In this document: in pieces, positions 47,391 through 64,000 of the stretch
How positions within the stretch are numbered: position 1 is the stretch's first letter
Layout of the letters: each line of letters opens with the position of its first letter
NCBI GenBank assembly: GCA_964576435.1
Contig: CAZNUP010000002.1
Location: 42,112-106,111, forward strand
Direction: 5' to 3'
Length of the DNA stretch: 64,000 nucleotides
Source: an uncultured Gammaproteobacteria bacterium
GTDB taxonomy: Bacteria; Patescibacteriota; Microgenomatia; JAMCZE01
Program-made: the position numbers and the translations under genes
Notes under the pieces: generated by a model
Seen by the model: only the letters and a program-made list of their open reading frames with translations
What the model was told of the DNA's origin: nothing
Database searches by the model: none

Positions 47391-47945
47391 TTAGTCAACC
47401 AGAGGGTCCATAGCAACTACATACCAAGCAATTCCGTCCCACATTTCTAGAGATTGGATTTCTGTATTAAAGCCAAGGGTGCCGACTTCTGGTTTTTTAG
47501 GTCTACCGTTTGTGTTCCAGGTGGCAATTCTTGGAAGACCAACCATCACTGACAATCCGCCACCAATTTCAATGTAGGTTGAGGAGTTTTTGGAAAGTTC
47601 TGGCTTGGCGTCGGGATTACTTGGCAGTCTGATATGACCTCCAAGAACAGTGCCTGATCCATCGTTTGCAAATGTTGCACCCAAAACACCCACACCAGTT
47701 GCTTGTTGGATGTCAGTTTCTGTAACTCCAACTCTTTTAAAGGAATCAGCACCATGAGCCGCAAGGGTTAGTTTAAATTTATTACTGCTTGTCCCATGAA
47801 TTAGGAGATTATTTGACCAAGTTCTGGCGTCAGTGCCATGGAAGATGATTGCCGACTTTGATTTAAAAGTGTCTGTCGCATGAAGAACGCCAGTGTCTCT
47901 GGATTTTATTGCGTCAGCGGTGTGAGTAATTAGAATGTTATCCAT
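47391..47945 (-). CDS. Hypothetical protein (184 aa) with N-terminal HxTD repeats and a C-terminal domain shared with the serine-rich repeat protein
   Basis: Repeats ITHTADA / VLHATDT / IFHGTDA / LIHGTSS / AAHGADS lie about 13 aa apart. The C-terminus RIATWNTNGRPKKPEVGTLGFNTEIQSLEMWDGIAWY aligns with [37 protein letters not shown] of the next gene. Confidence 0.55.
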   Translation of the reverse strand: MDNILITHTADAIKSRDTGVLHATDTFKSKSAIIFHGTDARTWSNNLLIHGTSSNKFKLTLAAHGADSFKRVGVTETDIQQATGVGVLGATFANDGSGTVLGGHIRLPSNPDAKPELSKNSSTYIEIGGGLSVMVGLPRIATWNTNGRPKKPEVGTLGFNTEIQSLEMWDGIAWYVVAMDPLVD

Positions 47946-47946
47946 A

Positions 47947-50900
47947 TTAATTTGAATTAGGATTTAAATTCATACGTAAAGTGTACCAGGATTGTCCACC
48001 CCAGAGTTCTAGATTTCCTGTATCTGTATTTAGACCTAGTGTTCCTGATTTTGGTTTCATTGGCCTCGTTGATGTTGTCCAGGTGGCCATTTTGGTTAGG
48101 CCAAGTAGGCCGGAACCTCTTGGGGTAACTTTACCCAGCATTGATGGTTGATACTTTGGAGCAGTTGGCCTATTAACCAACAGTTCTAACTCAGCTGGCG
48201 TTAAATTACCACCCCTTAAGAATGCATCAGTTGTGTTGGAGATTGTATATGAGGGGATTGACGATTCACTGGGACTGGCACTGCCAGTTGGGGAGAAGCT
48301 TAGTGAAATACTAATCGATTGGCTTATTGAACCTGTTGGACTTGCTGAAGCAGATTCAGATGATGATGGAGATGGGGAGAAGCTACTTGATGGTGAAGTA
48401 GATGAAGACTCCGAGAGTGATGAACTTTCAGAAATAGATGTTGAGAGTGAAGCTGATGGTGAAAGACTGGCACTTGGTGAGACTGAAGCAGATGTGCTAC
48501 TTGACTCTGAACCTGATAAAGATTCTGATGCACTTTCTGAAAGTGAGGACGATGGACTTTGGCTAGCACTTTGTGACAAAGAAGAACTTTGTGAGAGTGA
48601 TGAACTTTCAGAAAGAGAAGCGGATGGAGAAAGTGACGCCGAGGTACTTCCTGACGTGGAGCTACTTATAGAAGCTGAGGTGCTTTGGGAAACAGAAGAA
48701 GATTGTGAAATTGATGAGGACTCCGATAAACTACTTGACTGTGAGAGTGAAGATGATTCTGACAAACTAGCTGAAGGTGACAAGCTTGCACTTGGTGAAG
48801 TTGATGCAGAAATACTTGGAGAAATTGAAGAACTTATTGAAGCGGATGTACTTTCTGAAACAGAACTACTTGGAGAAAGTGAACTTGACTGGGAAATAGA
48901 AGCTGATGGTGATTGACTTGCTGATGGTGACAATGAGGATGATTCCGACAAACTTGCTGATGGGGAAATCGAGGCTGACGGAGAAAGAGACGACGATGTA
49001 CTTCTACTAGTTGAGGAACTTGTTGATGCAGAAATACTAGACGAGGTTGACGTGGATGGAGAAACTGATTGTGATTCTGACAAACTACTAGATGGTGAGA
49101 GTGATGAACTTGGTGACAAAGATGCTGATGGAGAAATAGAAGCACTGGGTGAGATTGATGCTGATGGAGATGTGGAAGCTGAAACACTAGCACTAGTTGA
49201 AGCTGAAACTGATGCGGAAGTACTTGCTGATGTTGAGGAACTTGGTGATAGGGATGCCGAACTACTTGCTGAAGCAGATCTTGATGCAGAGGATGAACTA
49301 CTTGCTGAAATTGAAGATGACGGGGAAAGACTTGCGCTTGGTGATATAGAAGATGATGGAGAAAGAGACGCTGATGGTGAAAGGGATGCTGATGGAGAAG
49401 TTGATGATGATGGTGAAAGAGATCTGGAAGCACTGGAACTTGTTGAAGATGAAACTGAAGCAGAAGTGCTTGCTGAAGTTGATGAGCTTGGCGAAATTGA
49501 GGCAGAAGGAGAAGTGGATGATGAAGGAGATAGAGATGACGAAGGTGAAAGGCTTGCACTTGGAGAAAGTGATGCTGACGGAGAAGTAGATGCCGATGGT
49601 GATAGGGAGCGCGATGCACTAGCTGATGTTGAAGCACTTTGTGAAGCCGATGTGCTTGCTGAAGTGGAACTACTTGGTGATTGCGATGCGGATGGTGAGA
49701 GTGATGCAGATGGAGAAGTTGATGATGATGGGGAAAGTGACGCAGATGGTGAGATTGATGCGCTTGGTGATGTTGATGAGCTTGGACTTTGAGATGCAGA
49801 CGCACTGGCACTAGTTGAGGCAGAGGTTGACGCTGAACTACTTGCTGAAACAGACGAACTTGGACTTTGAGAAGCAGATGGAGAAATGGATGATGAGGGT
49901 GAAACACTGGCGCTTGGTGAAAGCGATGCTGATGGTGAAACAGATGCCGATGGTGAGAGAGAGGAAGAAGCACTTGCGCTTGTTGAAGCTGAAACGGAGG
50001 CTGACGAACTTGCTGACACGGATGAACTTGGTGAGACTGAAGCTGACGGAGAAACAGATGATGAAGGTGATAATGACGAACTAGGTGATTGTGATGCTGA
50101 TGGGGAAAGGGATGCACTTGGTGACTGTGAGGCAGAAGGGGAAACTGATGCAGAGCTACTTGCTGATGTTGAAGATGAAACAGATGCAGAACTACTTGCG
50201 GAGGTTGATGATGAGGGTGAAATCGATGCCGATGGGGATAAACTAGAGCTTGGTGAAGTACTAGATGATGGACTTAATGAAGCTGATGGTGAAACTGACG
50301 CTGACGGGGAGACTGAGGCTGATGGTGAAAGAGAACTTGATGCACTAGCTGATGTCGACGCACTTGTTGATGCAGAACTACTGGCAGAAACGGAGGAACT
50401 TGGTGACTGAGAAGAAGAAGGTGAGACTGAAGCAGACGGAGATGTTGATGATGATGGGGAAAGTGATGCAGATGGTGAGATTGATGCACTTGGTGAAATT
50501 GAAGATGATGGCGAAAGGGAACTAGATGTACTGGCACTAGTTGAGGCAGAGGTTGACGCTGAACTACTTGCTGAAACAGACGAACTTGGACTTTGAGAAG
50601 CAGATGGAGAGGTGGAAGAACTTGGCGATGTTGAGGAGGATGGAGATAAACTTGCTGAAGGTGAAAGCGAAGCACTAGGAGAAGTGGATGCAGATGGTGA
50701 CAAAGATGATGATGCACTAGCTGATGTTGAAGCACTTACTGAAGCAGATGTACTTGCTGAAATAGAACTTGAGGGACTTAAACTTGCGGATGGTGAGACA
50801 CTCGAGCTTGGTGATAAAGATGCACTTGGTGACAAACTTGCTGATGGGGAGACACTTGAACTTGGAGATTGTGATGCTGATGCACTGGCACTAGTTGAAG

Positions 50901-51936
50901 CTGAAACTGAAGCTGAACTACTTGCTGAAACAGATGAACTTGGGCTTTGAGAAGCAGATGGGGAGATTGAAGCGGAAGGTGATGTTGAAGCAGATGGAGA
51001 AAGTGATGATGACGGTGACAAACTTGCAGATGGTGAAACAGAAGCTGAAGGTGAGAGTGAACTTGATGCACTGGCTGACATTGAGCTACTAGCTGATGCT
51101 GATGAACTTGCTGATGTTGAAGATGATGGACTTATACTCGCCGATGGTGATGTTGAAGCAGATGGAGAAAGACTTGATGATGGAGAAAGTGAAGCGGAAG
51201 GAGAAAGTGATGCGGAAGCTGATGCAGAAACTGATGATGATGCGGAAGCTGAACTACTTGCGGAGCTTGATGAACTTGGTGACTGCGATGCTGATGGAGA
51301 AGTAGATGACGAAGGTGAAGTTGACGCTGATGGTGAAAGACTGGAACTTGGTGATAACGATGCTGACGGTGAGACTGATGCTGATGGCGAAAGAGAACTT
51401 GATGCACTGGCACTAGTTGAAGCTGACACTGATGCGGAAGTACTTGCTGAAGTTGAAGATGAAGGGCTAGTACTTGCACTTGGTGAAAGACTGGAACTTG
51501 GCGATAGTGATGCTGAGGGTGATATTGATGCGCTTTGAGAAATAGAAGCGGATGGACTTTGAGAGGCTGACACACTTGAGGAAGTTGAAGCACTTACTGA
51601 AGCTGAGGCGCTTTGTGAGGCAGAGGCACTTGGAGAAAGTGATGCTGATGGACTAAGGGAAGCTGAAGTTGAAGCACTTGTTGATGCGGAGGTACTAGAA
51701 CTTGGACTTTGCGAGGCAGAGGTACTTGCTGATGTAGATGCTGATGCTGATTCTGATGGACTTAAGCTGGCACTGCTTGCTGAATAGACAGGATATGGTT
51801 GTCCTGGATAAGGTTGACCAAAATCTGTCGTACCAATACCAGAACCTCCTTGAGGAGATTGTTGTGGTGGGGTAGCATTTGGGTCGTCGTTACCTTGAGC
51901 GGGATATGGGTTACCAAAATAGTTAGAACCGAACAT
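47947..51936 (-). CDS. Serine-rich repeat protein (1329 aa), mucin/SRRP-like, with no signal peptide
   Basis: About 1,100 aa of SAS(T/V/L)S(A/P)S repeats (S[PATLVQ]S[AS]...). The N-terminus is [15 protein letters not shown]... with no hydrophobic segment. The unique C-terminal ~130 aa share a domain with the 47391-47945 protein. Confidence 0.7.
48120..51780 (-). repeat. Degenerate short-period coding repeat (6-12 nt periodicity) encoding the Ser-rich tract
   Basis: This low-complexity DNA produces spurious long ORFs in all other frames (D/E/G-rich on the plus strand, H/Q/L-rich on the minus strand). Confidence 0.8.
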
Positions 51937-52012: not shown

Positions 52013-52570
52013 TTATTTTTTAATTAAGACTACTTGAATGTCCATTACAACATTTGTGTAATGCCTGAGTGCAAAGGCTTTGGCTTCTTCACTTCTCATT
52101 GCCCAATCTGGGGTGAAATCATATCCAAAAGAAAAATCAAAATCGCAATGTATTGGATAATGATCTAATTTGTTTTGTACTCTCCAATCTTTGTTGTAAT
52201 AGAGGAACGTGGCTTCGGAAATTACTCTTGTATGTGTGGGATCTTGCCAGGCGCGGACTGAGTTGTAATAGGGTGCACGAATTAAGGCTTTTGCCCCTGG
52301 CTTCATGATTCTATAAAGTTCCTCCATAAACTTTATGATGTCTTTTGTGTGCTCAATATAGTGACTGGAAAAAATTTCATCAACGCTATTGTCTGGAATT
52401 GGCCAGGGAAATTTCTCAAGGTCATAAACCATGTCAACTCCGTCTGACTTAGCAATATCGATGCCAAAGAAACCTGGGGCCTTGTTTTGCCCACAGCCAA
52501 TATCAAGCTTAAATGGTGAGGGAAAATTTAACGGGCTTTCTTTCTTTTTTGTTTTTATGTTTTTGGACAT
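52013..52570 (-). CDS. Class I SAM-dependent methyltransferase
   Basis: Motif I LDIGCGQNKAPG and motif II VDEIFSSHYIEH fit the Methyltransf_11/23-type fold. Confidence 0.65.
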   Translation of the reverse strand: MSKNIKTKKKESPLNFPSPFKLDIGCGQNKAPGFFGIDIAKSDGVDMVYDLEKFPWPIPDNSVDEIFSSHYIEHTKDIIKFMEELYRIMKPGAKALIRAPYYNSVRAWQDPTHTRVISEATFLYYNKDWRVQNKLDHYPIHCDFDFSFGYDFTPDWAMRSEEAKAFALRHYTNVVMDIQVVLIKK

Positions 52571-52582
52571 ATGCGAATTATA

Positions 52583-53299
52583 TTACCAGACTAAATCGTT
52601 TACTAGATCGTAGTTGCCAGCTTTAATTCTTGTATCGCAAGCAACTTTGTATCCAAGTTTTTGAATATTCTCGAAGAAAAAAAGATCAAGCATGTCATCT
52701 GGATTTTTGCCAGGGTGCCTTAAAAAAGGAGTTCTAAACCATGGTCTTGGAACTCTGGGGTCTCTGAAGATGTCCAATTTGAAAAGAGTGTAAGAGGTAG
52801 TTAAACCCAAGCATGGTTGGATGCCGTCAACAACAGAGGAAACGGTTTGAAATGATAAGGGAAAAGAATTTGGATGGCCAAAAATTTGTGGTTTACCTTC
52901 CTCTCCTTTTGACCAAATTAAACCGCCAACAACATCGTATTTGCCAATTGATTCAAAAAGACGAGGTAAGCCGTCCAAAGGTGGAAGGATGGTTTCTTCC
53001 AAAGTTAAAATATATTTAAAAGTACTAAGTCCGGGATTTGTTAGAATTTGTTCGATTGCAGCATTATAGGCAAAGTTTTTTTCAAGATTCATCATCATTA
53101 GGCGCATGAATTTTTGATTCATTTGGCTAATTTGATAGAGCCATCTTTCGGCAACTTTTGCGTGAATCGCTCCTGAGTTTGGGATGATGCAAATTGTTCC
53201 TAAGTCTTTATAGCTTTGGGAAGTATAAAGTCTATTTATAGAGGAATTTAAATCACTATTGTGTTTGCCTTGAAAATCGGGATAAGTCAGATCTACCAT
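52583..53299 (-). CDS. Putative GT-A-like glycosyltransferase (paralogue of the next gene)
   Basis: TICIIPNSG near the N-terminus; conserved DIFRDPRVPRPWF and KVACDTRIK..YD shared with the 53293 gene. Confidence 0.35.
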   Translation of the reverse strand: MVDLTYPDFQGKHNSDLNSSINRLYTSQSYKDLGTICIIPNSGAIHAKVAERWLYQISQMNQKFMRLMMMNLEKNFAYNAAIEQILTNPGLSTFKYILTLEETILPPLDGLPRLFESIGKYDVVGGLIWSKGEEGKPQIFGHPNSFPLSFQTVSSVVDGIQPCLGLTTSYTLFKLDIFRDPRVPRPWFRTPFLRHPGKNPDDMLDLFFFENIQKLGYKVACDTRIKAGNYDLVNDLVW

Positions 53300-54015
53300 A
53301 CAATGTCGTTTTCCGCATCATAGTGGCCGACTTTTATCCTTGTGTCACAAGCCACTTTATAATTAAGTTTTTTGATGTTTTCATAAAAATAGAGGTCTTG
53401 GCTATAGCCTCTAATGCCAACGTTTGGAGCAAATTCCTGGAGTGTTTTAAACCATGGTCTTGGAACTCTGGGGTCTCTGAAGATATCTTTTTTGAAAAGA
53501 TTGAATCCCATTCCTAGTCCATTGCATTCTTGAATGGTTTCCGGAATTGGAACTTGGGGAACAAAATTAATTTCCTCTCTTTTATGGTCGCCATAAATCA
53601 TTGGTTGGCCGGCGTCGCCTTTTGTCCAATATAGACCTCCCACAACATCAAATTTTTCCATACCTTCATAGAGCTTTAAGAGTCCGTCGGGAGGAGGCAT
53701 ATTGTCTTCTTCTAAAGTGAGGATATATTTCCAGGAACGAAGGATAGGATTTTCTAAAATTTGAGTGATTGCTTGAGTGTAGGCGGCGCCAACTTCCATG
53801 CCGATAACAAACATACGCATAAATTTTTGATTCATTGGCACCATTAAACCCCACCAGCTTTGCAAAACTTTGGCTGAAATCATGCCTCTCGTTGGGATAA
53901 TGCAGATGGTTGACAGATCTCTATAAAATTCATTGGTTGATAGTTTTTCAGATAAATCAACTGAAATTTGCGCAGGAGGGTCAAAATGGTCAATCACAAT
54001 TTGTGGTTTCGTCAT
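53293..54015 (-). CDS. Putative GT-A-like glycosyltransferase (paralogue of the previous gene)
   Basis: TICIIPTRG, ILTLEEDN (a DxD-like motif), DIFRDPRVPRPWF; overlaps its neighbour by 7 nt. Confidence 0.35.
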   Translation of the reverse strand: MTKPQIVIDHFDPPAQISVDLSEKLSTNEFYRDLSTICIIPTRGMISAKVLQSWWGLMVPMNQKFMRMFVIGMEVGAAYTQAITQILENPILRSWKYILTLEEDNMPPPDGLLKLYEGMEKFDVVGGLYWTKGDAGQPMIYGDHKREEINFVPQVPIPETIQECNGLGMGFNLFKKDIFRDPRVPRPWFKTLQEFAPNVGIRGYSQDLYFYENIKKLNYKVACDTRIKVGHYDAENDIVW

Positions 54016-54028
54016 AGCAGCGAGTTTA

Positions 54029-55171
54029 TCATGTGGAAACGAAAGTTACCGCTGGTAAAATGGTCGCTGTTGAGCCAGCACCACCTGTTGTTCCTAGTTC
54101 GCTTATGGTAATTGCAGTTGGAATGGCGGTTCCACCAAAACCTGCTCTTCCTGTGTTTGTTAGAAAGCCAACAATGTTTCTGCCCCACCAATTTGTGAAG
54201 GCAGAGTTGCTGGCACTCCAAGCCGTGGAGGCAACACCAATCGGCATCAACGAACCAGAGACCATATTTACCGGATTAATGGGTTGACCAATTATGCCTG
54301 CATTACTTAGGCCAAAGGTTGACCTGGTGTCGCCATTGCTTCTTAATTGCAGTAAGCCAATCCAATAAACACCACCTGTCAAGCTCGTCATATCGGCACC
54401 AAATTGTAAGCCAATAATTCTTGTTCCAGAGATGAATGATGACATAAGTCCTGTTGTTGTTAAGCCTGTGCTGCCATTAGTATTGAATGGTCCATACCCG
54501 TAGCCACTGGTCATGGTTGTCGTTGGAAAATTCCAAGTTACTGAGCGGCTATTTAAAGTTTGAGAAATGCCAAAAGAGTTACTGGTTATTAAACTTAGTG
54601 AGTTGTCATTTCTACTATAGAGTCCAAAATAGGAAAAGTGAGTGTGGCTAGCTGCTCCAATGGCGCTGGTTGCAAGGGACAATGAATTGCCAATTAGAAT
54701 TTGATTAAAGTTAAGGTTCGGGGGAATTGTTACTGGGAAAACAAAAAGCGAATTAGTTCCCGTGACTGAGGTGTAATTTGCAGCAATTGTTTGTAATCCA
54801 GTTTGGCCAGCTCCGGCAATGTGGACTGGAGCCCAGTAGGTGAGAGGGGCACTGGCATCGGTCATGGTTTTTTCGGTGATGGTGGCAGCGATTTGAAAGC
54901 CAACTTGAAAAGATTGGGAAGAAGAGCTTTCTTGGGTTCTTAAAATTGTAAAAGTGTCGACATCAATGTCTGTCACCCGGATAATTTCAGCATTGGTGGA
55001 AATTGGTTGGGTTCCCGATGGCCAGACAGTGGCATTAAAAGGAGGTGGGGGAAATTTTAATCCATCTCCAGCTTGCACTGTTAAAGTTGTTCCTGTCCCA
55101 GGATTTGTTGTGTCACCCTGGTTGGTTCCCCGAATTGTTGAATAGGCAAAGTTTCTATGTGCGTCAGCCAT
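54029..55171 (-). CDS. Tandem-paralogue hypothetical protein 3 of 3 (380 aa); candidate structural/glycan-acceptor protein
   Basis: Shares N-terminal ...FPPPPFNATVWPSGTQPISTNAEIIRVTD...DTFTILRTQE, a mid-region ...GYGYGPFNT... and C-terminal ATILPAVTFVST with the two upstream genes. It has no signal peptide or TM and is S/T/N/G-rich. Confidence 0.55.
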   Translation of the reverse strand: MADAHRNFAYSTIRGTNQGDTTNPGTGTTLTVQAGDGLKFPPPPFNATVWPSGTQPISTNAEIIRVTDIDVDTFTILRTQESSSSQSFQVGFQIAATITEKTMTDASAPLTYWAPVHIAGAGQTGLQTIAANYTSVTGTNSLFVFPVTIPPNLNFNQILIGNSLSLATSAIGAASHTHFSYFGLYSRNDNSLSLITSNSFGISQTLNSRSVTWNFPTTTMTSGYGYGPFNTNGSTGLTTTGLMSSFISGTRIIGLQFGADMTSLTGGVYWIGLLQLRSNGDTRSTFGLSNAGIIGQPINPVNMVSGSLMPIGVASTAWSASNSAFTNWWGRNIVGFLTNTGRAGFGGTAIPTAITISELGTTGGAGSTATILPAVTFVST

Positions 55172-55172
55172 C

Positions 55173-56291
55173 TTAAGTAGACATTACATTAGAATAAAAG
55201 GTAACAGTTGGCAAAATTGTGGCTGTTGAGTTGGCAGCTGAAGCACCAAGAGCTGATAAGTTAATGCTGTCTGGAACTGTGGTGCCACCAAAATTTCCAA
55301 GAGAAGTGGCAGTGACAAAAGCAACCATGTGTCGACCCCACCACTGGGTGCTGTTGCCAACATTTGTTCCGCCCCAAAGCGAAGCCACTGAACCTATGGG
55401 CAAAACACCGCTGACGCTGCCCGCAAGATGGGGAGGGTCAATTATTTGACCAATGACACCAGAGATAATTACTCCTGCTCCACTATTATTTGCTGTGCTT
55501 CTAAGTGACATGAGGCCAAGATAGTATATGCCGTTTGTTAGATGCATTTCACTGCCAAATTGCATCCCCACAGCTCTCGTTCCTGAGATGTAGTTAACAA
55601 TTTGAGCGGTGTTGCTCATTGCTAAAGTGTCATAACCATAACCGCTGGTGTTGGTTGTTGTTGGGAAACTCCAAGTTCGTGAGAGGCCGTTCATGCTTTC
55701 AGCGATTGAAAAAGACCCTGTGGCCATTAAAGACAATGCAGTGCTTGCGTTCATAGTATAGAGGCCAAAATAAGAATAGTATGAATTGCTGCCTTGGGCG
55801 TTACTTGTTGTATATGACATTGAGACTGGAAGAATGGCTTGGTTAAAATAGATATTGTTGTTGACAGTTACTGGAAAAACAAAAAGTGAGCCAGATGATG
55901 ATTGTCCTGAAGCAGAAGCTAAGGTTTGAAGTGAGGTAGCTGCAGCTGAAGAGTAAATAAATGGGGACCAAGTGGCAAATGAATTTTCAGCTTCGACTAA
56001 GGTTTGTGCTGTAATTGCTGCAGAAATTTGGTCACCAACAATAATGTTTTTGGCGTTAGTGTCCTCTTGCGCTCTTTCTACAGTAAATGTGTCAGTAGAT
56101 TTGGATACAACGAGCACTATTTCTGCATTTTCTGATGTGGGTTGTTCGCCTGTGGGCCAAATGGTAGCGTAAAAAGGAGTGTCTGGGAAAAGACTGCCAG
56201 TCCCTGCTGAAACTACTAATGAAGTGCCAGTATTGTTGGGTGTTGGGGCGGTGTCAATTGCTGATATGGCAAAATTATTGAAATTACTCAT
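55173..56291 (-). CDS. Tandem-paralogue hypothetical protein 2 of 3 (372 aa)
   Basis: ...SLFPDTPFYATIWPTGEQPTSENAEIVLVV...TFTVERAQE...; C-terminal TILPTVTFYSNVMST. Confidence 0.55.
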   Translation of the reverse strand: MSNFNNFAISAIDTAPTPNNTGTSLVVSAGTGSLFPDTPFYATIWPTGEQPTSENAEIVLVVSKSTDTFTVERAQEDTNAKNIIVGDQISAAITAQTLVEAENSFATWSPFIYSSAAATSLQTLASASGQSSSGSLFVFPVTVNNNIYFNQAILPVSMSYTTSNAQGSNSYYSYFGLYTMNASTALSLMATGSFSIAESMNGLSRTWSFPTTTNTSGYGYDTLAMSNTAQIVNYISGTRAVGMQFGSEMHLTNGIYYLGLMSLRSTANNSGAGVIISGVIGQIIDPPHLAGSVSGVLPIGSVASLWGGTNVGNSTQWWGRHMVAFVTATSLGNFGGTTVPDSINLSALGASAANSTATILPTVTFYSNVMST

Positions 56292-56295
56292 AATT

Positions 56296-57411
56296 TCATG
56301 TAGAAACCAAGCTTACTATTGGTAGGACCGTAGCAATAGTGTTTGCAGTTTGTAAGTTAGCAAGTTCGATTACGTTTGGTAACCTGGTGCCGCCAAATCC
56401 TTGCTGAGCGGTATTGGTGGCAAAGCCCATTATAAACCGACCATTCCAACCTGAGATTCGATTGTTGCTTTGAGCAAATTCTGCGGCTGCTTGACCTATT
56501 GGGTTCATGCCGCTAACTGAACCGGCCATGTTAATGGGATTTATTACTTGGCCGATAATTCCAGCATGGGAAAAACCTAGTGAAGAAACACTTCCGGCAG
56601 TACTTCTGTAGGTGAGAATTGCAAGCCAATAAATACCGCCTGTAATAGATAACTCAGTGTTAAATTGTAATTGCACTTTTCGGGCTCCTGATATAAGTGA
56701 AACCATTTGAGCTGTTGTGGAAATGTTACCAACTCCGGGAAAAGAAGTGCCATAAGCGTAGCCTGTTGTGGCGGTGCTTGTTGGATAGCTCCATGTTAGG
56801 CTGACACTGTTTAGAGTTTCAAGAATACTAAACGAATTAGAAGTGATGAGTTCCATAGTATTTGATGACATTGAATAGAGTCCAAAATTGGAAAAATAGG
56901 TGTTACTGACTCCGGCACTATTGGTGGTCATATACGACTGTGATTGGGCTATAACTATCTGATTAAAGCGCATGGGGAAGGGGAGAGTCATCGGGAAAAT
57001 AAAAATGGAACCGGTTCCTGTTGTAGAGGAATTTGCGGCAAGAGTCTGAACTCCGGTGCCTGCAGAGGCAGCGATTGTTGGAGCCCAGCTATTTATGTAG
57101 TAGTTTTCTAAATCAGTAAAGGTTTTGGCTGTTAAAGCGGCGGCAATTTGGTAACCTGATTGAAGGTTGATGCTTGCAGAGCCTTCCTGCTGACGGGTTA
57201 TTGTAAAGTTGTCTGATGCAATTCCTGTGACTCTAACTATTTCGGCATTAGTGCTAGTTGGTTGTGTGCCGCTTGGCCAAACAGTGGCATTGAAAGGCGG
57301 GGTTGGGAAAAGTGATCCCTGGCCAGTTTGAACATCTAAAGAAGTGCCACCAGTTCCTGGGGAATTGGCAAGAGTGGAATATGCGAAATTTGCGAATTGA
57401 TCGATTGCCAT
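56296..57411 (-). CDS. Tandem-paralogue hypothetical protein 1 of 3 (371 aa)
   Basis: ...SLFPTPPFNATVWPSGTQPTSTNAEIVRVTG...NFTITRQQE...; C-terminal TVLPIVSLVST. Confidence 0.55.
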   Translation of the reverse strand: MAIDQFANFAYSTLANSPGTGGTSLDVQTGQGSLFPTPPFNATVWPSGTQPTSTNAEIVRVTGIASDNFTITRQQEGSASINLQSGYQIAAALTAKTFTDLENYYINSWAPTIAASAGTGVQTLAANSSTTGTGSIFIFPMTLPFPMRFNQIVIAQSQSYMTTNSAGVSNTYFSNFGLYSMSSNTMELITSNSFSILETLNSVSLTWSYPTSTATTGYAYGTSFPGVGNISTTAQMVSLISGARKVQLQFNTELSITGGIYWLAILTYRSTAGSVSSLGFSHAGIIGQVINPINMAGSVSGMNPIGQAAAEFAQSNNRISGWNGRFIMGFATNTAQQGFGGTRLPNVIELANLQTANTIATVLPIVSLVST

Positions 57412-57421
57412 ATTTTAGAGA

Positions 57422-59167
57422 TTATTTTAGCATTTTTAAACGTCTTTGAGGTCTTGGAATTTCTAGTAATTCTCTTAAATTTTGCCAACCTTCTAGTGAA
57501 TCTATGTTTCCTTCTTGCCAGTTTATGAGGAGTTGTTGGTTTCTAAATTCTTCTTTTTGCCATCTGGCTTTGGTAGCATTTTCCCCGTGTTTGACGTCTA
57601 TATTTGGAAACTCTGATTTCCAGGTTTTTAAAGTGTAGATCGTTTGCCATTTAATTCTTTGGTGGGTCATAGGTTCAAAACCCATGTCAGCCGAGTAGCC
57701 TTGGCTTTTAATAAATGCTACGCGTTCTCTAAAATGAGTAATTAGTTCCTCCCGAAATCCACAAAGGCCCGATAATTGGTTTACATCATAGTGAAGTGTG
57801 TGACCATCGGATTTTCTTAGGAACCAAACATTTTGGTTATAGTAGAAAGAGTTTCTATCGTCTGGCGTAAAGTCAAAGTGGCTGGGATGGTAAAACACAT
57901 CATGTTCGCAAAAGAAAATGATGTCTGACTTGCTATTTTCTAACGCCCCAAGAATTTGAGTAAACATGGCTAAGGGACTTTTCTTAAGAGAGGGGAAACG
58001 AATGTTTTTAACTCCGAAATCCAGTTTTTTGAGAGTTGCGGAAACAATGGGGATGTTTTTTTCTGAACTAATTTTTTGCAATTGATCGCGAACGGGTTTG
58101 GCAATTTTTTCGTCTAGCTCGCTATCTGAATAGTAGATTATGCCTTTGGTTTTAGGGCTAGACATTGGTGATTCCTCAGTTGGTTCAATTTCAGCTGGTT
58201 TTGATTGATCGTTTGAATTCGAAAAGGTAAAAGTGTTGTTTTTTAGTTTTTCTAGATCCTCATTAGTCCAACCTTTAACTGGCCAAAACTTTTCAACAAG
58301 CCATGACAGGGGTTTTTTTTGGAGAGGCCATTTGTTATTAAAGAAAAGGTCTCTGGCATATTTTTTGGCGTATTCTTGATCTTTGCCTGAGATTGGATAG
58401 GGGAAACCAAAGTCACCACCTTGAGTTCTAAACATATGTGCATACCAAGTTTTTTTATTACAAAGAACACGACCACCTGAAAGCCAAGTTTTAACTGCAA
58501 CTTCAATTCCTTGTGAGCCCCAGCTACCAAAAGCTTCATCACAAATACCAAGTTCCCAATATTTTTCTCTAGTTAGCATCCAACAAGACCCTTGGAGAGA
58601 CATGGTTTCTGTTATTTCTCCTTGGCCTTCGGGACGTTTGCTGTAATCGCCGAAATATTGGAAGTGGGGTGTTGAGTCAAAACAATAGGAAATACTTTTT
58701 GGACTTTCTTTTGCTATCCAAACAACATCTCTTGTGGTTGGCTTTCCGCATTCCGTACAAGGACCTGATTTTCCTTGATATCTTCTATGGCCATTTTCGC
58801 AAATCCAATCAAAAGCGTGGAGATTTTTCATTAATGGAACCATAGTCCAATCAGATTGCATCTCACTAGTCATCTTTATATCAAACCCTTTGTCAAACGA
58901 ACAATGTGCATCACATTTCATTAAATATTTAGCTCGAGACAATTGAGCGGCTTCATTGGTTGCGGCTCTTTGACCAATGCTTTCATTGTGGTAAATAAGT
59001 GTCACTCGGTCGTCATCTTGGACCGGGGGATTGGCCCAAATACCATCTAAAACGGCGATTATTTCTGTGTTGCCTTCAATTTTTTCGAGAATATCCTGAA
59101 TTGTCCTTGCCAGGAACATTTCATTTCGGGCAGGGATGAGAATGGAAAGATCTGGGGTATTGGTCAT
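57422..59167 (-). CDS. Two-domain glycosyltransferase; the N-terminal GT-A domain has a D-x-H motif and a WGxxxxE...HMFR motif (GT27 polypeptide-GalNAc-transferase-like / GT2-like)
   Basis: LSILIPARNE, then YLMKCDAHCSFDKGFD (DxH), then WGSQGIEVAVKTWLSGGRVLCNKKTWYAHMFR (compare the ppGalNAc-T motif WGGENLEISFRIWQCGG...HVFR). It has no TM, so it is cytoplasmic. Confidence 0.55.
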   Translation of the reverse strand: MTNTPDLSILIPARNEMFLARTIQDILEKIEGNTEIIAVLDGIWANPPVQDDDRVTLIYHNESIGQRAATNEAAQLSRAKYLMKCDAHCSFDKGFDIKMTSEMQSDWTMVPLMKNLHAFDWICENGHRRYQGKSGPCTECGKPTTRDVVWIAKESPKSISYCFDSTPHFQYFGDYSKRPEGQGEITETMSLQGSCWMLTREKYWELGICDEAFGSWGSQGIEVAVKTWLSGGRVLCNKKTWYAHMFRTQGGDFGFPYPISGKDQEYAKKYARDLFFNNKWPLQKKPLSWLVEKFWPVKGWTNEDLEKLKNNTFTFSNSNDQSKPAEIEPTEESPMSSPKTKGIIYYSDSELDEKIAKPVRDQLQKISSEKNIPIVSATLKKLDFGVKNIRFPSLKKSPLAMFTQILGALENSKSDIIFFCEHDVFYHPSHFDFTPDDRNSFYYNQNVWFLRKSDGHTLHYDVNQLSGLCGFREELITHFRERVAFIKSQGYSADMGFEPMTHQRIKWQTIYTLKTWKSEFPNIDVKHGENATKARWQKEEFRNQQLLINWQEGNIDSLEGWQNLRELLEIPRPQRRLKMLK

Positions 59168-59173
59168 AGAGCT

Positions 59174-60088
59174 TTACCAAAGGAATGTCTTTTCAATTCC
59201 TTGATCTAGGGAAAGAGTTTTTCTCCCAGTTGCTTGGCGAAATTTTTGTGAATCTAGGACAGAATTTTTGAGCCTTAGATTGGATTCAATTGGGCCAAAA
59301 AACTGCTTTAGTGTTACAGGATTTACTTTGTTGGTTGGCACGTTTAGTTTTTTACAAACTTTTTGTGCTAGTTCGTAGGGACTTGCGATTTGACTTCCGG
59401 CAATATGATAAATTCCTTTTGCGCCGACATCCAAAAGTGCAATGGTTCCTTCTGTTAGATCATCAATATGGGTGAAAGCTATTTTTTGATCGGTGACAGC
59501 GTTTGTTTTTCCTTTATAGATAAGGTTGTTAACTATACCTTGAACCATGTTGCTGCCTAAACCTCCTTGGCCATAAGCAACAACGCCTCTAACTATTAGA
59601 AACCTCTTTAATCCTGAGTTTAAAACTAGGTCTTCAGCAATACTTTTTGTCTGGCCATACCAGTTTTTTGGTTCTTTGGTATCAGTTTCTTTGTAGCTAT
59701 CTTTTTCTCCTGAAAAAACGCATTCCGTTGAAAGTAGAACAAGTGTTTTACTATTTTCTTTGCAGTAGTTAATTATATTTTGGGTCCCTACAACATTTAC
59801 TTGCCAAGCCAGACTATCTTGACCTAAATTTTTTTCTAGTTCACATCTATCTATATGAGCATAGGCTGCAGCGTGAATTACTATGTTGGCGTCACTTTTA
59901 AGAGTCATAGGCTTAGTCAGGTCGCGCCTTACATATGTTGTTAATTTGGAAGAGTTTTTGGGTGGGGGAGTTTGGTGGTAAACGCCAAGGACTTTATTCT
60001 TGTCAAGATTATCTAAAAATCTTCTTCCTATAAAACCGGCAACGCCGGTTATTATGTAGCTATCTGATTTTTTGGTCTTTTTCTTCAT
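59174..60088 (-). CDS. NAD-dependent sugar epimerase/dehydratase (SDR family)
   Basis: Rossmann motif TGVAGFIG near the N-terminus; about 300 aa; it sits within the GT/MT cluster. Confidence 0.65.
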   Translation of the reverse strand: MKKKTKKSDSYIITGVAGFIGRRFLDNLDKNKVLGVYHQTPPPKNSSKLTTYVRRDLTKPMTLKSDANIVIHAAAYAHIDRCELEKNLGQDSLAWQVNVVGTQNIINYCKENSKTLVLLSTECVFSGEKDSYKETDTKEPKNWYGQTKSIAEDLVLNSGLKRFLIVRGVVAYGQGGLGSNMVQGIVNNLIYKGKTNAVTDQKIAFTHIDDLTEGTIALLDVGAKGIYHIAGSQIASPYELAQKVCKKLNVPTNKVNPVTLKQFFGPIESNLRLKNSVLDSQKFRQATGRKTLSLDQGIEKTFLW

Positions 60089-60930
60089 AGTGTTTCTTTA
60101 GGTAGGGGAGAGAATTTTTCTACTAACCAAGAAAAGTCGTGAACTCGTTCTTTCCATTTGTTATTTAGCCAGTAGTCAGCAGCAAACTCTCTGCCCTGTT
60201 TAATTCCCTCATTATATGCTCTTTGTTCCTGGTGGGTGAAGCCATAGCCTCTACTATCTCTATGCCAGTGGGCATACCAAGTTTTTTTGTTTACAACGAC
60301 CCTTCCTCCTGAAAGCCAAGCTTTATTGCCAATTTCTTGGGCCTCATTGGCAAAACTTCCGTAAGCTTGGTCATCCATGGGGCCAATTACATCCCAGAAG
60401 AAGTCTTTTTTTAAAAACCAACAGGAACCTTGAAAGGTCATGGTGTCATCGATTAGTATGTCTTTTCTTTCTTCTGCACGTTGTTTCCATTCGTTACCAT
60501 GAAGATAGCCGTCTTTGTTTTCTAGATACATGTAATCAATTGGTGGGCGTCCGTCTTTAATTATTTGCCAATTGTCGGCATCAAGCCTGTATCTTCTTGG
60601 AATTACAACCCAATTATCTGAAGAGTCGGCGATGAGTTTTTGGTCAAACCCTTCATCAAACATGCAATGTTCGTCTGTTTTCATTAGATAGGTTCCTTTA
60701 GCAATTGCCATGCCGGCATTTATGCCAGCGCGCATGCCTTTTCCCATCCCAGGTTTTCCTTGATGAATGACTTTTATTCTTGAATCCGTCCAGTTATATT
60801 CTTTGGGCCAATAGCCATCGAGGACGACAACCACTTCAACATTTCCTTTTGCTTTAGAAAGGATGTCGTCTATGGTTTTTTGCAAATAATCCTCAGTCCG
60901 ACTGGGGATAATAACAGAGAGATCTATCAT
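60085..60930 (-). CDS. GT-A glycosyltransferase with D-x-H and WGxxxxE motifs (GT27-like / GT2-like), paralogue of 57422 and 63293
   Basis: LSVIIPSRTE, YLMKTDEHCMFDEGFD, FANEAQEIGNKAWLSGGRVVVNKKTWYAHWHR. Confidence 0.55.
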   Translation of the reverse strand: MIDLSVIIPSRTEDYLQKTIDDILSKAKGNVEVVVVLDGYWPKEYNWTDSRIKVIHQGKPGMGKGMRAGINAGMAIAKGTYLMKTDEHCMFDEGFDQKLIADSSDNWVVIPRRYRLDADNWQIIKDGRPPIDYMYLENKDGYLHGNEWKQRAEERKDILIDDTMTFQGSCWFLKKDFFWDVIGPMDDQAYGSFANEAQEIGNKAWLSGGRVVVNKKTWYAHWHRDSRGYGFTHQEQRAYNEGIKQGREFAADYWLNNKWKERVHDFSWLVEKFSPLPKETL

Positions 60931-60956: not shown

Positions 60957-61481
60957 TTACGTGTTCCATTTTTTGACGAACCACCAGGTGACGTCTTCTT
61001 TTGGATGTGAGGTAACATTTAAACTTAGTGAATGGGATTTGACATAACCATCAACAGCTAAGATTACACTCGAATTATTAGCGGCATTATAGTTATTTCC
61101 AGCAATTATGCCACCCTTTTTTACTTTTTTTGACCAGGCTAGAAGATCTGTTATCACATAATCAAATTTTGGATTAGCATCAATATAGACGAAATCTAGT
61201 GCACCATCTGGAAAACTTCTTAGAGCGTCCATACTGGTTTTTCTGACAAGAGTCGCGTTATATGGGCGAAGTCTTTTTTTGGCAAAATCATATTTTCCAT
61301 ACATGACATGATTTTTTACATTGCCGTTTACCCAAGGATCAATGCCGTAGTATTTTAAACCAGGAATAGCTTTGCAAAGTGTTTCAGCAAAATCTCCTGC
61401 GTAGACACCAATTTCAGCACCAATTTTGAAGCCAAGTTTGTTGAAGTATTTAGCTAGATCGCCTCTGGATTTAACTTCCAT
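60957..61481 (-). CDS. Class I SAM-dependent O-methyltransferase (Methyltransf_24 / TylF-like)
   Basis: EIGVYAGDFAETL (motif I) and LDFVYIDANPKFDYVITDL...GGIIAGNNY. Confidence 0.55.
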   Translation of the reverse strand: MEVKSRGDLAKYFNKLGFKIGAEIGVYAGDFAETLCKAIPGLKYYGIDPWVNGNVKNHVMYGKYDFAKKRLRPYNATLVRKTSMDALRSFPDGALDFVYIDANPKFDYVITDLLAWSKKVKKGGIIAGNNYNAANNSSVILAVDGYVKSHSLSLNVTSHPKEDVTWWFVKKWNT

Positions 61482-61517
61482 ATGTTTCTTACATTTTATG
61501 TTATCACATTTATTTTT

Positions 61518-62165
61518 TTACGTGTTAACAAAAAACCAGGATCTAAATCTATCACGAAGCATTCCAGGTTTTATTTCTTTAGTGCCAACTATGAAGTAGG
61601 GGGTTATTCCATAAGCTCTTACATAAGCATCAAGAGCCCACCTAACATGATTTCTTTTCTTTTGTGGAAAAAAACAATAGTCGTGGCCTGCTACAATGCC
61701 ACCTGCTTTTACCTTTTTCTTCCAGGCGTGGATATCATCAGTTACATTTGGGAACTCGTGATTGCCGTCAATGTAGACAAAATCTAGTGATCCATCTTCA
61801 AAGTCTTTAACTGCTTCAAGAGATTGTTTTCTGATGATTTTAGAATTGTAGTTTGCTAGTCTTTTTGTTGCCTCGTCATAGATATCATCAAATTTTTTTT
61901 GCTCGGTATCGACTCCTGAAATTCCGGGTTCATAGGCAGAAGCTAGCCAAGGATCAATGGAGTAGAGGAGAAGACTCGGATTTTCTTTTAGAAGAACTTC
62001 CGAATAGATACCTCTTTCAACTCCAATTTCAGCACCGTTTGTAAATCCTAGTTCGGCAAAAAGTTTAGCTAAACTGTTTCTATCGATGTTTTCGATTTCA
62101 ATTGGTTGAGCGGATTTTAAATTCAGCTTGTATTTCTTGGAGATGAAATCCAATGTATTAGTCAT
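61518..62165 (-). CDS. Class I SAM-dependent O-methyltransferase (Methyltransf_24 / TylF-like), paralogue
   Basis: EIGVERGIYSEVL and LDFVYIDGNHEFPNVTDDIHAW...GGIVAGHDY. Confidence 0.55.
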   Translation of the reverse strand: MTNTLDFISKKYKLNLKSAQPIEIENIDRNSLAKLFAELGFTNGAEIGVERGIYSEVLLKENPSLLLYSIDPWLASAYEPGISGVDTEQKKFDDIYDEATKRLANYNSKIIRKQSLEAVKDFEDGSLDFVYIDGNHEFPNVTDDIHAWKKKVKAGGIVAGHDYCFFPQKKRNHVRWALDAYVRAYGITPYFIVGTKEIKPGMLRDRFRSWFFVNT

Positions 62166-62166
62166 T

Positions 62167-62808
62167 TTAAACCCAATCTTCTTTAGTTCTTATAAACATC
62201 CAGCCTGGATTATCTGGGCCAAAGGTGGGGTCTTTTATATCATTTGTTAGGACAAAAAGAGGTCTAACATTGTGGGCATAAACATATGCTTGAACGACGT
62301 CTTTTACATTGACAATATATTTTGTGTGGCTTCTTTTGTAGTCATGACCAAAGACAATTCCACCAGGACGGACTTTCTTGGCCCAATCGCAGATGTCGAT
62401 TGCGACGTTTTTAAAGTCATGAGCGGCATCAATGTAGACAAAATCTAGTGAGCCATCTTTGAAATCTTTAGCAGCGTCGCTGCTAAATTTCTTTACAATT
62501 TCGACGTTATAGGGAGCTAGTCGTTCTTTTGCCTGGTTAAAATAGTTGTTAATTCTATCTGTGTATTCGTTGTAGCCTTGATATGGTTCCCAAATATCGA
62601 CTGCAAATAATTTAACACCGGGGTTTTCTTTACAAATGGTTTCCGCGTGCCAACCTTGGGCGACACCGACTTCGGCACCTGTTTTGAATCCGAGTTCGCC
62701 AAGAGTTTTTGCCATTATGGTCCTATTTATTCCATGGATTTCTACTGGATTTTTAGGGTGAATCTCGAGATTAAATTTTTTAACTATGAAATCAAGTGTG
62801 TCTACCAT
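62167..62808 (-). CDS. Class I SAM-dependent O-methyltransferase (Methyltransf_24 / TylF-like), paralogue
   Basis: EVGVAQGWHAETI and LDFVYIDAAHDFKNVAIDICDW...GGIVFGHDY. Confidence 0.55.
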   Translation of the reverse strand: MVDTLDFIVKKFNLEIHPKNPVEIHGINRTIMAKTLGELGFKTGAEVGVAQGWHAETICKENPGVKLFAVDIWEPYQGYNEYTDRINNYFNQAKERLAPYNVEIVKKFSSDAAKDFKDGSLDFVYIDAAHDFKNVAIDICDWAKKVRPGGIVFGHDYKRSHTKYIVNVKDVVQAYVYAHNVRPLFVLTNDIKDPTFGPDNPGWMFIRTKEDWV

Positions 62809-63290
62809 AGATTTTCTAGATCAACTAAATTACTTAATACATCAGTTCTTCTGTTATCTTCTTTCCAAATTTTCCGGTATTTAAAGAGGGGATAGATCTC
62901 GTGGTAGCTATAAGTATGATAATAGGTTTTATTAGTGTCGTGAATCACAATATACTTTGCATAATTTGCTAAGCGTTTGATGTCGACTTTTCTTCTGAAA
63001 TCAGGGGAATGGTCAACAAGAACAACATCCCAGGGCCGTTCAATGTCCGCTTTATCCCAGTCATCAACATAATTTATTTCGTGATAGGGCCCTTTGTAAT
63101 AGTCAACCCAACCATTCCATTCAGCACTGTTGTCATAGGAAACTAATTTTCTTTTATTTAAGAGGCACCAATAGTGGAGGAAGGGAGTACTAAAAACTCC
63201 AGTGCCAAGTTCCAAAACGTCACCATTAGTTAGCGAAAGAGTTCTTATTAGGGCTGGCAGGTGGGTGCCATAATTAACGGAGACTCTCAT
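62802..63290 (-). CDS. Putative SAM-dependent methyltransferase-like protein
   Basis: VLELGTGVFSTPFL (a GxGxG-like motif I) and an acidic VVLVDHSPDF motif; the call is weak. Confidence 0.35.
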   Translation of the reverse strand: MRVSVNYGTHLPALIRTLSLTNGDVLELGTGVFSTPFLHYWCLLNKRKLVSYDNSAEWNGWVDYYKGPYHEINYVDDWDKADIERPWDVVLVDHSPDFRRKVDIKRLANYAKYIVIHDTNKTYYHTYSYHEIYPLFKYRKIWKEDNRRTDVLSNLVDLENLW

Positions 63291-63292
63291 GG

Positions 63293-64000
63293 TTATTTTT
63301 TGTAGCGGCCGTTATCAATTAGCCACTGTTTATAGATTTTTTTCCAATTATCTGGCCAAGTGGGCATGGGCATAAATCTGTCAATTAACCACGATAAGTC
63401 GTTTGACCTATCCTCCCAATGGTTGCCCATCCAAAATCTGGCACACCAGTTGTAGGACTTTTTAATTCGTTCATCGGTTAGTGGCCAACCTCTTGGTCTT
63501 TGACCGCCTTTATGCATGTGGGCATACCAAGTTTTTTTGTTGACCATAACTTTCCCTTTCCATGGGCCGAGCCAGGTTTTTAAACATAACTCGGGAGGTT
63601 CCATGGCATAATTGTCATAGCCTTCAGAACTCATGCCTTTTAGTGAATTCCAGAAATAGTCTTTTGTTACAAACCAACCGGAGCCGTGCATTTGAATGGT
63701 TTCATCAATTAAAAATTCTGGTTTCCCTTCCCTTTCTGCAGTTCGTTCTGGCCAATGGCCTCCTGCTTTAAAACGAAATCCGTGGCGATCTGTAAAGGGG
63801 CAAGAAAGATAGAAATAATCGTAGTGCCTCTCATCTTGCCATTTCCAATTTTCGGCATCTAAAACATAAAATCTTGGGGTGACTAACCAATTGTCTTCCA
63901 TATCTGCTTGAAGTATTTCATCAAAGCCTTCACCAAACATACAATGAGAGTCTGATTTGTAGAGGTATTTTCCGGTGGCCATTCCGGAAAGAAGATTGAC
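63293..64000 (-). CDS. GT-A glycosyltransferase with D-x-H motif (GT27-like / GT2-like), 5'-truncated by the window edge
   Basis: The frame stays open to nt 64000 (...VNLLSGMATGKYLYKSDSHCMFGEGFD). It has WLGPWKGKVMVNKKTWYAHMHK and is a paralogue of 57422 and 60085. Confidence 0.5.
   Translation of the reverse strand, partial: VNLLSGMATGKYLYKSDSHCMFGEGFDEILQADMEDNWLVTPRFYVLDAENWKWQDERHYDYFYLSCPFTDRHGFRFKAGGHWPERTAEREGKPEFLIDETIQMHGSGWFVTKDYFWNSLKGMSSEGYDNYAMEPPELCLKTWLGPWKGKVMVNKKTWYAHMHKGGQRPRGWPLTDERIKKSYNWCARFWMGNHWEDRSNDLSWLIDRFMPMPTWPDNWKKIYKQWLIDNGRYKK

Follow-up and report, generated by a model that had tools for sequence, protein, structure and literature searches.

Patescibacteria (the bacterial Candidate Phyla Radiation, CPR) are mostly uncultured episymbionts, and the way in which they recognise and attach to their hosts is poorly understood. 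Elsewhere among bacteria, several adhesins (HMW1A, AIDA-I, TibA and the serine-rich repeat proteins) are served by a dedicated cytoplasmic glycosyltransferase (HMW1C, Aah, TibC and GtfAB, respectively). Surface adhesins resembling phage fibres have been described in Bdellovibrio bacteriovorus, which lives on other bacteria, as mosaic adhesive trimer (MAT) proteins, which associate a conserved end with diversified tips and are built from a signal peptide, their own N-terminal domain of ~130 aa and long trimeric shafts (PMC10769870). Here, we present the analysis of a 64-kb stretch of DNA (64,000 nt of contig CAZNUP010000002.1, GenBank assembly GCA_964576435.1, GTDB lineage Patescibacteriota; hereafter the window), focusing on three tandem paralogous genes (Par3, Par2 and Par1 in their order of transcription; hereafter the trio). 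We propose that they encode domesticated, probably trimeric receptor-binding fibres, the tip of which would be modified by adjacent enzymes and which would serve cell adhesion, a reading to which we give, taken as a whole, a probability of about 55%. That the trio proteins are phage-type fibre proteins made of an N-terminal tail-fibre domain and a C-terminal tip domain is highly probable. The modification of the tip and its use in cell adhesion are more tentative, each standing at, or slightly below, an even chance.

By sequence and fold, the N-terminal third of the trio proteins falls into a phage fibre family that is already known. Residues ~1-110 matched two tail-fibre families of PHROG (phrog_8469 and phrog_30299) and an unannotated one (phrog_6427), with E-values from 4.7e-13 to 3e-8. 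Searches with tblastn against GenBank phages gave matches confined to residues 1-103, corresponding to annotated tail fibres of Ralstonia GP4-like, Burkholderia BcepIL02 and Agrobacterium Atu_ph08 phages and to an uncultured phage (55% identity). A profile of 70 family members had a single match in the PDB, the 'putative tail fiber protein' of the portal-tail complex of phage GP4 (8JOV; E 6.6e-10, residues 3-134), whose solved N-terminal domain is 40% identical to that of the trio and has the fold predicted for it. In an AlphaFold2 model (mean pLDDT 81), a beta-rich domain (residues 1-105) and a beta-sandwich (residues ~119-371) are the only globular parts, joined by a linker of ~15 aa, with no shaft. 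The first-pass annotation, which had not recognised the family, had named the tail-fibre fold among those to look for; this fold is indeed present over the ~105 N-terminal residues, and the lack of a recognised family holds for the C-terminal domain, which has neither a Pfam family nor a solved relative.

This N-terminal domain also occurs in environmental viruses. We kept 80 of 111 confirmed IMG/VR loci, in which it reached up to 62% identity, PFNATVW motif included, and the 63 open reading frames (ORFs) recovered from them fuse it to distal parts, in proteins of 78-1262 aa. Next to the fibre gene, three of these contigs, checked with PHROG, encode portal, head-closure, major-head or tail proteins. 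Phage receptor-binding proteins are usually built in this way, with a conserved virion-proximal end and exchangeable distal parts. Full-length relatives of the trio were absent from the 80 kept loci, and a neighbour-joining tree of the N-terminal domains (~100 aa), asking whether the bacterial copies stem from a single capture, gave no resolution.

The C-terminal domain was isolated and searched against 1.84 billion representative proteins (E <= 1e-3), yielding 73 cluster representatives carried by proteins of 87-1334 aa. In nearly all of them, the match reaches within a few residues of the C-terminus, and in the three trio paralogues hidden Markov models (HMMs) also place the domain at the extreme C-terminus. 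The long proteins that we inspected display repetitive, shaft-like N-terminal regions (SNSNGVSFG..GSTITAS-like units), two of the seven also with the kind of HxH motif that phage fibres contain. Because the domain terminates long repetitive fibre-like proteins of phages and Patescibacteria elsewhere, we regard the trio proteins as 'anchor plus tip' fibres devoid of a shaft. The tip domain contains a nearly invariant PTT.T.GY.Y loop, and that of Par2 shares 30% identity, across 152 aligned positions, with the C-terminal part of the 598-aa protein encoded just before the glycosyltransferase/methyltransferase pair (see below) of phage MW202524. Distant copies were all missed by hmmsearch and jackhmmer with default filters, owing to biased composition, and were found only in runs with the --max option.

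The three genes themselves, of 371-380 aa, were recovered exactly as first annotated (Table 1), each with its own ATG and its own stop, and separated by gaps of 4 nt and 1 nt. Since the N-terminal and C-terminal domains are complete in each copy (HMM matches and alignment), a single gene broken by frameshifts was rejected, in agreement with the earlier annotation, and the trio recurs in other contigs. Par1 (380 aa) shares 46% and 55% identity with the two other copies. The MAFFT alignment contains the conserved blocks that had been pointed out, i.e. GT(S/T)L.V..G.G..FP..PF.AT(V/I)WP.G.QP.S.NAEI at the N-terminus, SGYGYG or TGYAYG in the centre and AT(I/V)LP.V(T/S)(F/L)..S at the C-terminus; FNATVWP is identical in two copies and becomes FYATIWP in the third. 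Cysteine is absent from all three proteins, and across the 70 family members the composition is dominated by T (12.7%), S (12.4%), A (10%), G (9.8%) and N (6.7%), with S+T at 25%, D+E+K+R at 7% and Cys at 0.1%. Neither a hydrophobic N-terminal segment nor a class III signal or a twin-arginine motif was found by sequence scan in the trio, and no family of Pfam (E <= 0.1) or NCBIfam matched it. The first description of these proteins as beta-rich, structural-looking and lacking cysteine and signal peptide is thus borne out by composition, N-terminal scan and AlphaFold2 model.

Such a composition, very poor in charged residues and cysteine and rich in S, T, A, G and N, together with the location inside a glycosylation cluster, is also what surface-layer, pilus-like or capsid-like subunits would display, and the first-pass annotation had read the trio in this way, as a family without relatives forming the main glycan acceptors of the envelope. 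We consider it very unlikely. The proteins begin with a tail-fibre domain of phage type, which makes up their N-terminal third and is 40% identical to a domain of solved structure, the C-terminal domain ends long repetitive fibres and not lattice proteins, and the trio lacks the features of S-layer proteins, pilins and flagellins, with no Sec or class III signal, no flagellin N- or C-terminal domain, no SLH or similar anchoring domain (Pfam, NCBIfam and N-terminal scan) and no Pfam family at E <= 0.1. The many N-x-S/T sequons, which had been taken as a sign of glycosylation, are not enriched (on average 6.27 in each protein, compared with 5.96 when the sequences are shuffled, n=70), and the sole conserved one, N41-A-T (68 of 70 members), belongs to a motif also present in the phage homologues.

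The tip domain is associated with two enzymes, encoded downstream of the trio by w240, which starts 13 nt after Par1, and MT11, with the w240 paralogue w238 in between. The w240 profile matched the protein A197 of Sulfolobus turreted icosahedral virus (STIV) in the PDB (E 0.0027), its LTLEED motif (EED/EHD) being aligned to the DED of A197. Foldseek likewise retrieved A197 as best match (E 4e-11) of the AlphaFold2 model (pLDDT 83), followed mostly by the collagen hydroxylysine glycosyltransferases LH3 and ColGalT1, and then by the polysaccharide enzymes KfiA and SpsA and by POMGnT1 and SunS. The model therefore depicts w240 as a glycosyltransferase of GT-A fold with a DxD-type motif, for which catalysis is predicted. 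In w238, the third acidic residue of this motif is lost (EET); second w240-like copies are present in the related loci L012 and L019, where the aligned motifs are EEN and HEN, and genes of 255-257 aa occupy the w238 position in L114 and L198, an assignment made by position alone. Judging from this loss, w238 may be a non-catalytic partner of w240.

Phages carry the same association. A fibre gene is followed immediately by a w240 homologue (42-56% identity) and an MT11 homologue (38-44%) in bona fide phage contigs L044, L046, L049 and L085, in the complete 42.6-kb phage genome MW202524, in a contig of 146 kb that also has a capsid gene and in the baseplate region of a myophage. With iterated, unfiltered HMMs, the tip domain was found at the C-terminal end of the fibres that precede w240 in L044, L046, MW202524, L115 and L113, and remained undetected in every viral locus devoid of w240. 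Conversely, using w240 as bait, we recovered 80 metagenome loci, of which 53 could be evaluated upstream and 52 downstream: an ORF with the tip domain (169-1450 aa) lies directly upstream of w240 in 30 of the 53, and MT11 directly downstream in 47 of the 52. Because this linkage is constant while the phage N-terminal domain occurs in only two of the w240-bait loci, the constant unit consists of tip domain, GT-A enzyme and methyltransferase, and the N-terminal part is exchangeable. Overall, this triad was found in more than 40 of the loci examined, in phages and bacteria, and both the tip domain and its enzymatic partnership are absent from Pfam, NCBIfam and PDB.

Three types of N-terminus are found on the tip, i.e. 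the phage N-terminal domain, repeat shafts without this domain, and a membrane anchor. The anchored type, adjoining w240 and MT11, occurs in chromosomes of Paceibacterota/Minisyncoccia (up to 881 kb) and starts with MSIS..GV and a K/R-rich stretch, followed by a transmembrane helix with an invariant Glu and by LSYQGRLTD (ORFs upstream of w240 in L127, L129, L134, L141, L149, L151, L158, L164 and L178). This architecture implies that the predicted anchored tips are displayed outside the membrane of those cells. The invariant Glu of the helix recalls pilin-type signals, at a different distance however. At the chromosomal position of the trio, locus L113 (5815-8154) encodes one 779-aa protein combining the N-terminal domain, a pectate-lyase-like beta-helix, which is a tailspike/depolymerase fold, and the tip; this shows the exchange of cassettes at the locus.

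The constant adjacency of tip, glycosyltransferase and methyltransferase would be equally expected if the fibres were lectins and the enzymes altered their ligand, i.e. the surface glycan of the producer, preventing self-binding or superinfection. In phages, serotype-conversion genes located next to tail-fibre or tailspike genes are a classical arrangement. We nonetheless judge such ligand masking quite unlikely here: the cluster is soluble, with no lipid-carrier gene, flippase or membrane glycosyltransferase among the genes seen, most of the enzymes structurally closest to w240 glycosylate proteins, and the pair also occurs in the myophage-baseplate contig and the 146-kb phage-like contig, where lysogenic conversion is less expected.

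The chromosomal setting of the trio bears on its origin and use. The window is a bacterial chromosome, because it encodes ATP synthase (beta subunit), leucyl- and arginyl-tRNA synthetases, ComEC, MreB and TatC; ComEA, an M16 peptidase, NDK, a sortase and a TagA-like enzyme are encoded there as well. We recognised no gene for capsid, portal, terminase, tail or integrase, either in the window or up to 10 kb from the trio at related loci. A prophage was rejected on the absence of integrase and structural genes from the window and on the position of its two tRNA genes, ~10 kb away beyond housekeeping genes. The genomic context that characterises GP4-type tail fibres is likewise missing, as the flanks are housekeeping and devoid of a phage structural module over the same range.

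Related contigs of Microgenomates keep the order 581-aa GT2 glycosyltransferase, three paralogues, w240, (w238), MT11 and a giant Ser/Pro-rich protein, and in five cases, window included, the locus occupies the same chromosomal position beside Tat genes (the four others being L015, L113, L114 and L198). Whatever their genome, the first copies of the trio group in one clade, while the other two copies are largely position-specific. Because the clades are copy-specific, the triplication is old and predates these lineages. The closest locus in a genome belongs to a Daviesbacteria metagenome-assembled genome (MAG) (68% identity); towards its orthologues, the nonsynonymous divergence (dN) of 0.25-0.29 with saturated synonymous divergence (dS) agrees with purifying selection. 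Only one copy, of 307 aa, is present in some Patescibacteria, and the homologues with a named source are labelled Dojkabacteria or Patescibacteria for the trio and Woesebacteria for the partner enzyme. From these labels, the window most likely comes from a member of the Microgenomates within Patescibacteria. Several related MAG contigs are labelled 'uncultured Gammaproteobacteria', a label that we do not trust given the same locus layout in members assigned to Daviesbacteria, Dojkabacteria, Woesebacteria or Patescibacteria. In one MAG, the loci of two contigs (L009/L010, CAZGEA010000003.1 and CAZGEA010000005.1) have identical ORF maps and are likely a duplicated assembly.

Alternatively, the trio could form the fibres of a resident phage-like entity (prophage, particle akin to a gene-transfer agent, or tailocin) with head and tail genes elsewhere and release by lysis. 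Both domains are phage fibre modules, the fibre, glycosyltransferase and methyltransferase module also sits in phage structural regions, two further proteins of the locus end in a motif of Streptomyces phage minor tail proteins (see below), and lysis would explain the absence of signal peptides across the locus. Moreover, gene-transfer agents such as RcGTA keep fibre genes at separate loci. Yet, the structural and integrase genes are missing over the range covered, the locus sits at the same chromosomal position beside Tat genes in five cases, ~7 kb of soluble glycosyltransferase and methyltransferase genes upstream far exceed a fibre cassette, and the 80 kept IMG/VR loci hold no full-length relative, which together make this explanation unlikely, although one to be kept in mind.

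A host-made fibre with a tail-attachment domain could also replace phage fibres in progeny virions and render them non-infectious, and competition for the docking site is conceivable, the N-terminal domain being 50-62% identical to many environmental phage fibres. We regard such anti-phage decoys as barely plausible: PADLOC gave no match to a known defence family, three conserved paralogues, a dedicated tip module with its enzymes and a large sugar cluster would not be needed, and the gene order, conserved over a long divergence, does not show the rapid turnover typical of defence islands.

Table 1. Coordinates of the trio and of its neighbours in the window, ordered along the direction of transcription.
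Feature	Position (nt)	Strand	Basis
Two genes of no assigned family, soluble	62802-63982	minus	Hydrophobicity scan
Three tandem Methyltransf_24 paralogues (174, 215 and 213 aa)	60957-62808	minus	Pfam
Second GT2	60085-60930	minus	Pfam
RmlD-like reductase/epimerase	59174-60088	minus	Pfam
581-aa GT2 glycosyltransferase, directly upstream of the trio	57422-59167	minus	Pfam, E 2.4e-11
Par3, transcribed first, 371 aa	56296-57411	minus	ORF list
Par3, N-terminal phage tail-fibre domain, aa 1-105	57097-57411	minus	
Par3, C-terminal fibre-tip beta-sandwich, aa ~109-371	56299-57087	minus	
Par2, second paralogue, 372 aa, same two-domain layout	55173-56291	minus	ORF list, PHROG, MAFFT, HMM
Par1, third paralogue, 380 aa, same two-domain layout	54029-55171	minus	ORF list, PHROG, MAFFT, HMM
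w240, predicted 240-aa GT-A fold glycosyltransferase, STIV A197-like, LTLEED (DxD-like) motif	53293-54015	minus	Profile, AlphaFold2, Foldseek
w238, 238-aa paralogue of w240, EET replacing EED	52583-53299	minus	Alignment
MT11, 185-aa class I S-adenosylmethionine-dependent methyltransferase, Methyltransf_11	52013-52570	minus	Pfam
1329-aa Ser-rich repeat protein	47947-51936	minus	
184-aa protein ending GRP..P..GTLGFN.....LE.W.G..W	47391-47945	minus	PHROG, tblastn against phages
tatA	47123-47344	minus	
tatA	46973-47122	minus	
tatC	46248-46973	minus	
tatA	46064-46231	minus	

The trio belongs to a larger cluster of co-oriented genes that overlap or are separated by short gaps (largest gap checked 76 nt, before the Ser-rich gene). 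As first annotated, it is embedded between glycosyltransferases, the upstream 581-aa GT2 keeping this position in relatives of the locus, where it is 58-70% identical, with no homologue in phages by tblastn. Methyltransf_24 genes reach up to six copies in related loci, and a radical SAM/SPASM gene is present in L006/L007; the multiplicity of these predicted methyltransferases implies heavily methylated or otherwise unusual sugars. The Ser-rich protein is made almost wholly of repeats, with a conserved N-terminus and C-terminal motif, and coincides with the maximum of GC skew of the window (~0.40-0.41 at 48-52 kb); its equivalents in related loci, at the same position, are Ser/Pro-rich proteins of 1731-1962 aa. 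It has no transmembrane segment and no signal peptide, and its N-terminus had no tblastn match in phages. The motif GRP..P..GT.GFN.....LE.W.G..W, which matches Streptomyces phage minor tail proteins, ends both this protein and the 184-aa one. A promoter and terminator scan of 46-64 kb gave counts no higher than in shuffled sequences and was uninformative.

A hydrophobicity scan of the 16 main ORFs between 47391 and 64000 found no signal peptide or membrane segment, and neither a twin-arginine motif in the cluster proteins nor a flippase, polymerase, lipid-carrier or priming transferase gene was seen in the cluster. Such a soluble gene content fits, by sequence, protein acceptors better than lipid-linked glycans: because the enzymes are all soluble and no lipid-carrier, flippase or polymerase genes were seen, the sugars would be put on proteins in the cytoplasm, where the fibre tips and the Ser-rich protein are the obvious candidate acceptors. 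We thus propose that the GT-A enzyme glycosylates the tip in the cytoplasm, that the sugar or the protein is then methylated, that the trio proteins assemble as trimers like their phage relatives, giving three types of fibre or one hetero-oligomer, and that the cell uses the products as binding fibres, plausibly to attach to a host cell. The first-pass suggestion of glycan acceptors or lectin-like subunits is therefore still viable and is strengthened by the linkage of tip, GT-A enzyme and methyltransferase and by the soluble cluster, with the sequon argument set aside.

Display at the cell surface is supported indirectly, by analogy with the predicted anchored tips of other Patescibacteria and with a 6464-aa protein of the window. 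The ORF of the latter (2369-21763, plus strand) starts with a weak similarity to MerR, followed by a hydrophobic segment around residues 170-190 and a huge G/S/T/N-rich body, and a Peptidase_S74 domain (endosialidase chaperone) lies near its C-terminus (E 2.2e-12). This giant is predicted to be anchored in the membrane and to carry a maturation module of phage tailspikes or fibres, an architecture that Bdellovibrio employs in its MAT surface fibres.

Export machinery is represented in the locus only by the adjacent Tat block, which is co-directional with the cluster, starts 46 nt after the 184-aa gene and also follows the equivalent locus in L015, L113, L114 and L198. As the cluster contains no twin-arginine signal, the link between Tat and the fibres is only a lead. 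A further small TatA-like gene is located at 44378-44524 on the plus strand. One may picture that Patescibacteria have permanently domesticated the tip and its obligatory A197-like glycosyltransferase and methyltransferase as an attachment apparatus, and that in Microgenomates the signal-less fibres, with their phage tail-docking domain, are folded, oligomerised and glycosylated in the cytoplasm along with the mucin-like Ser-rich giant, before being exported in a folded state through the downstream Tat system. We hold this extended scenario to be improbable; if true, it would represent a signal-less export of glycoprotein fibres by Tat and the first dedicated enzyme pair maturing a phage-type receptor-binding tip.

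Several observations weigh against the proposed domesticated adhesion fibres. In phages, the N-terminal domain plugs into the tail, yet no tail, adaptor or baseplate gene was found in the window or, at related loci, over a distance of 10 kb, and the window covers only 64 kb of the genome of the trio. The trio, Ser-rich and 184-aa proteins are devoid of signal peptide, transmembrane segment and twin-arginine motif, leaving the route to the surface undemonstrated. The acceptor is deduced from gene linkage only, the modification being predicted, and no C-terminal domain is detectable at 23 of the 53 w240 loci. This domain has no significant solved structural relative in the PDB, with weak similarity to carbohydrate-binding and other beta-sandwiches, and the term 'receptor-binding' reflects its C-terminal position in the sequence and not a known binding site. 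Finally, its detection needed unfiltered and iterated HMM searches, whose E-values are to be read with caution.

Some side observations concern the surroundings of these loci. Small mobile insertions leave the core genes undisrupted in some of them (L114 at 3962-4228 and 8108-8672, L198 at 4115-4813 and 9413-9974, L004 at 13031-20039 and L196 at 10737-20159), and the inserted mobile or accessory genes include a GIY-YIG endonuclease, a BrnT/CopG toxin-antitoxin system and AbiEii. In L196, a two-component sensor block lies between w240 and MT11, with a bAvd gene (accessory to diversity-generating retroelements) and a Big_13/fn3 protein; a similar block, without a bAvd match, follows a w240-like gene of 242 aa in L004. 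The arginyl-tRNA synthetase gene of the window (33313-35148, plus strand) has its best 'phage' matches in unannotated Listeria, Staphylococcus and Enterococcus phage records and in faecal 'Bacteriophage sp.' records, which are probably bacterial contamination or mis-binned.

If they act as we propose, these conserved chromosomal fibres of phage type would be concrete candidates for attachment proteins in Patescibacteria, in parallel with the MAT fibres of Bdellovibrio. The triad points to an undescribed enzyme-dependent step, of maturation or of ligand masking, for a class of receptor-binding proteins, with relevance for the prediction of phage host range and for virion glycosylation. Should the fibres instead be part of a phage-like particle with dispersed genes, the locus would be a marker of these particles in CPR genomes. 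Our literature search on the glycosylation and methylation of fibres returned nothing describing the partnership of tip, GT-A enzyme and methyltransferase, and those on tail-fibre-like loci in CPR/Patescibacteria nothing relevant. What would be new here is the domestication of phage-type receptor-binding fibres with a dedicated modification pair, the fibre family of the N-terminal domain being already known.

Compared with the described systems, the trio is closest in its N-terminal domain to the tail fibre of Ralstonia podophage GP4 (439 aa, 18 chains in 8JOV), of which only the ~130 N-terminal residues match the family profile; the GP4 fibre is encoded in a phage structural module and built into the tail, whereas the trio is chromosomal, triplicated and shaftless, with no tail genes nearby. 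With the adhesins served by dedicated glycosyltransferases, the locus shares a binding protein gene placed beside that of a soluble glycosyltransferase, which here would likewise modify the product before export, and its giant Ser-rich protein has a composition like that of serine-rich repeat glycoproteins. However, these adhesins rely on GT41, heptosyltransferase or GT-B enzymes and have Sec signals or secretion partners, whereas the trio has neither, its modification is predicted from genes alone, and the locus encodes a small A197-like GT-A enzyme with a methyltransferase. The window resembles the MAT system through its 6464-aa protein, whose S74 domain is typical of one MAT subgroup (PMC10769870). 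By contrast, the trio has no signal peptide and, in the model, none of the long beta-prism or beta-helix shafts of MAT proteins; instead, it carries a phage tail-attachment domain from residue ~3 and a dedicated glycosyltransferase/methyltransferase pair. This distinction is drawn from the description of MAT proteins and not from homology of their N-terminal domains. As for the enzyme, STIV A197 (PDB 2C0N) and the w240 model superpose with a Foldseek TM of 0.70 on the target at 19% identity, and both appear as minimal viral-type GT-A glycosyltransferases with a DxD-like motif; A197 comes from an archaeal virus, whereas w240 has a fibre-tip domain and a methyltransferase as its linked partners.

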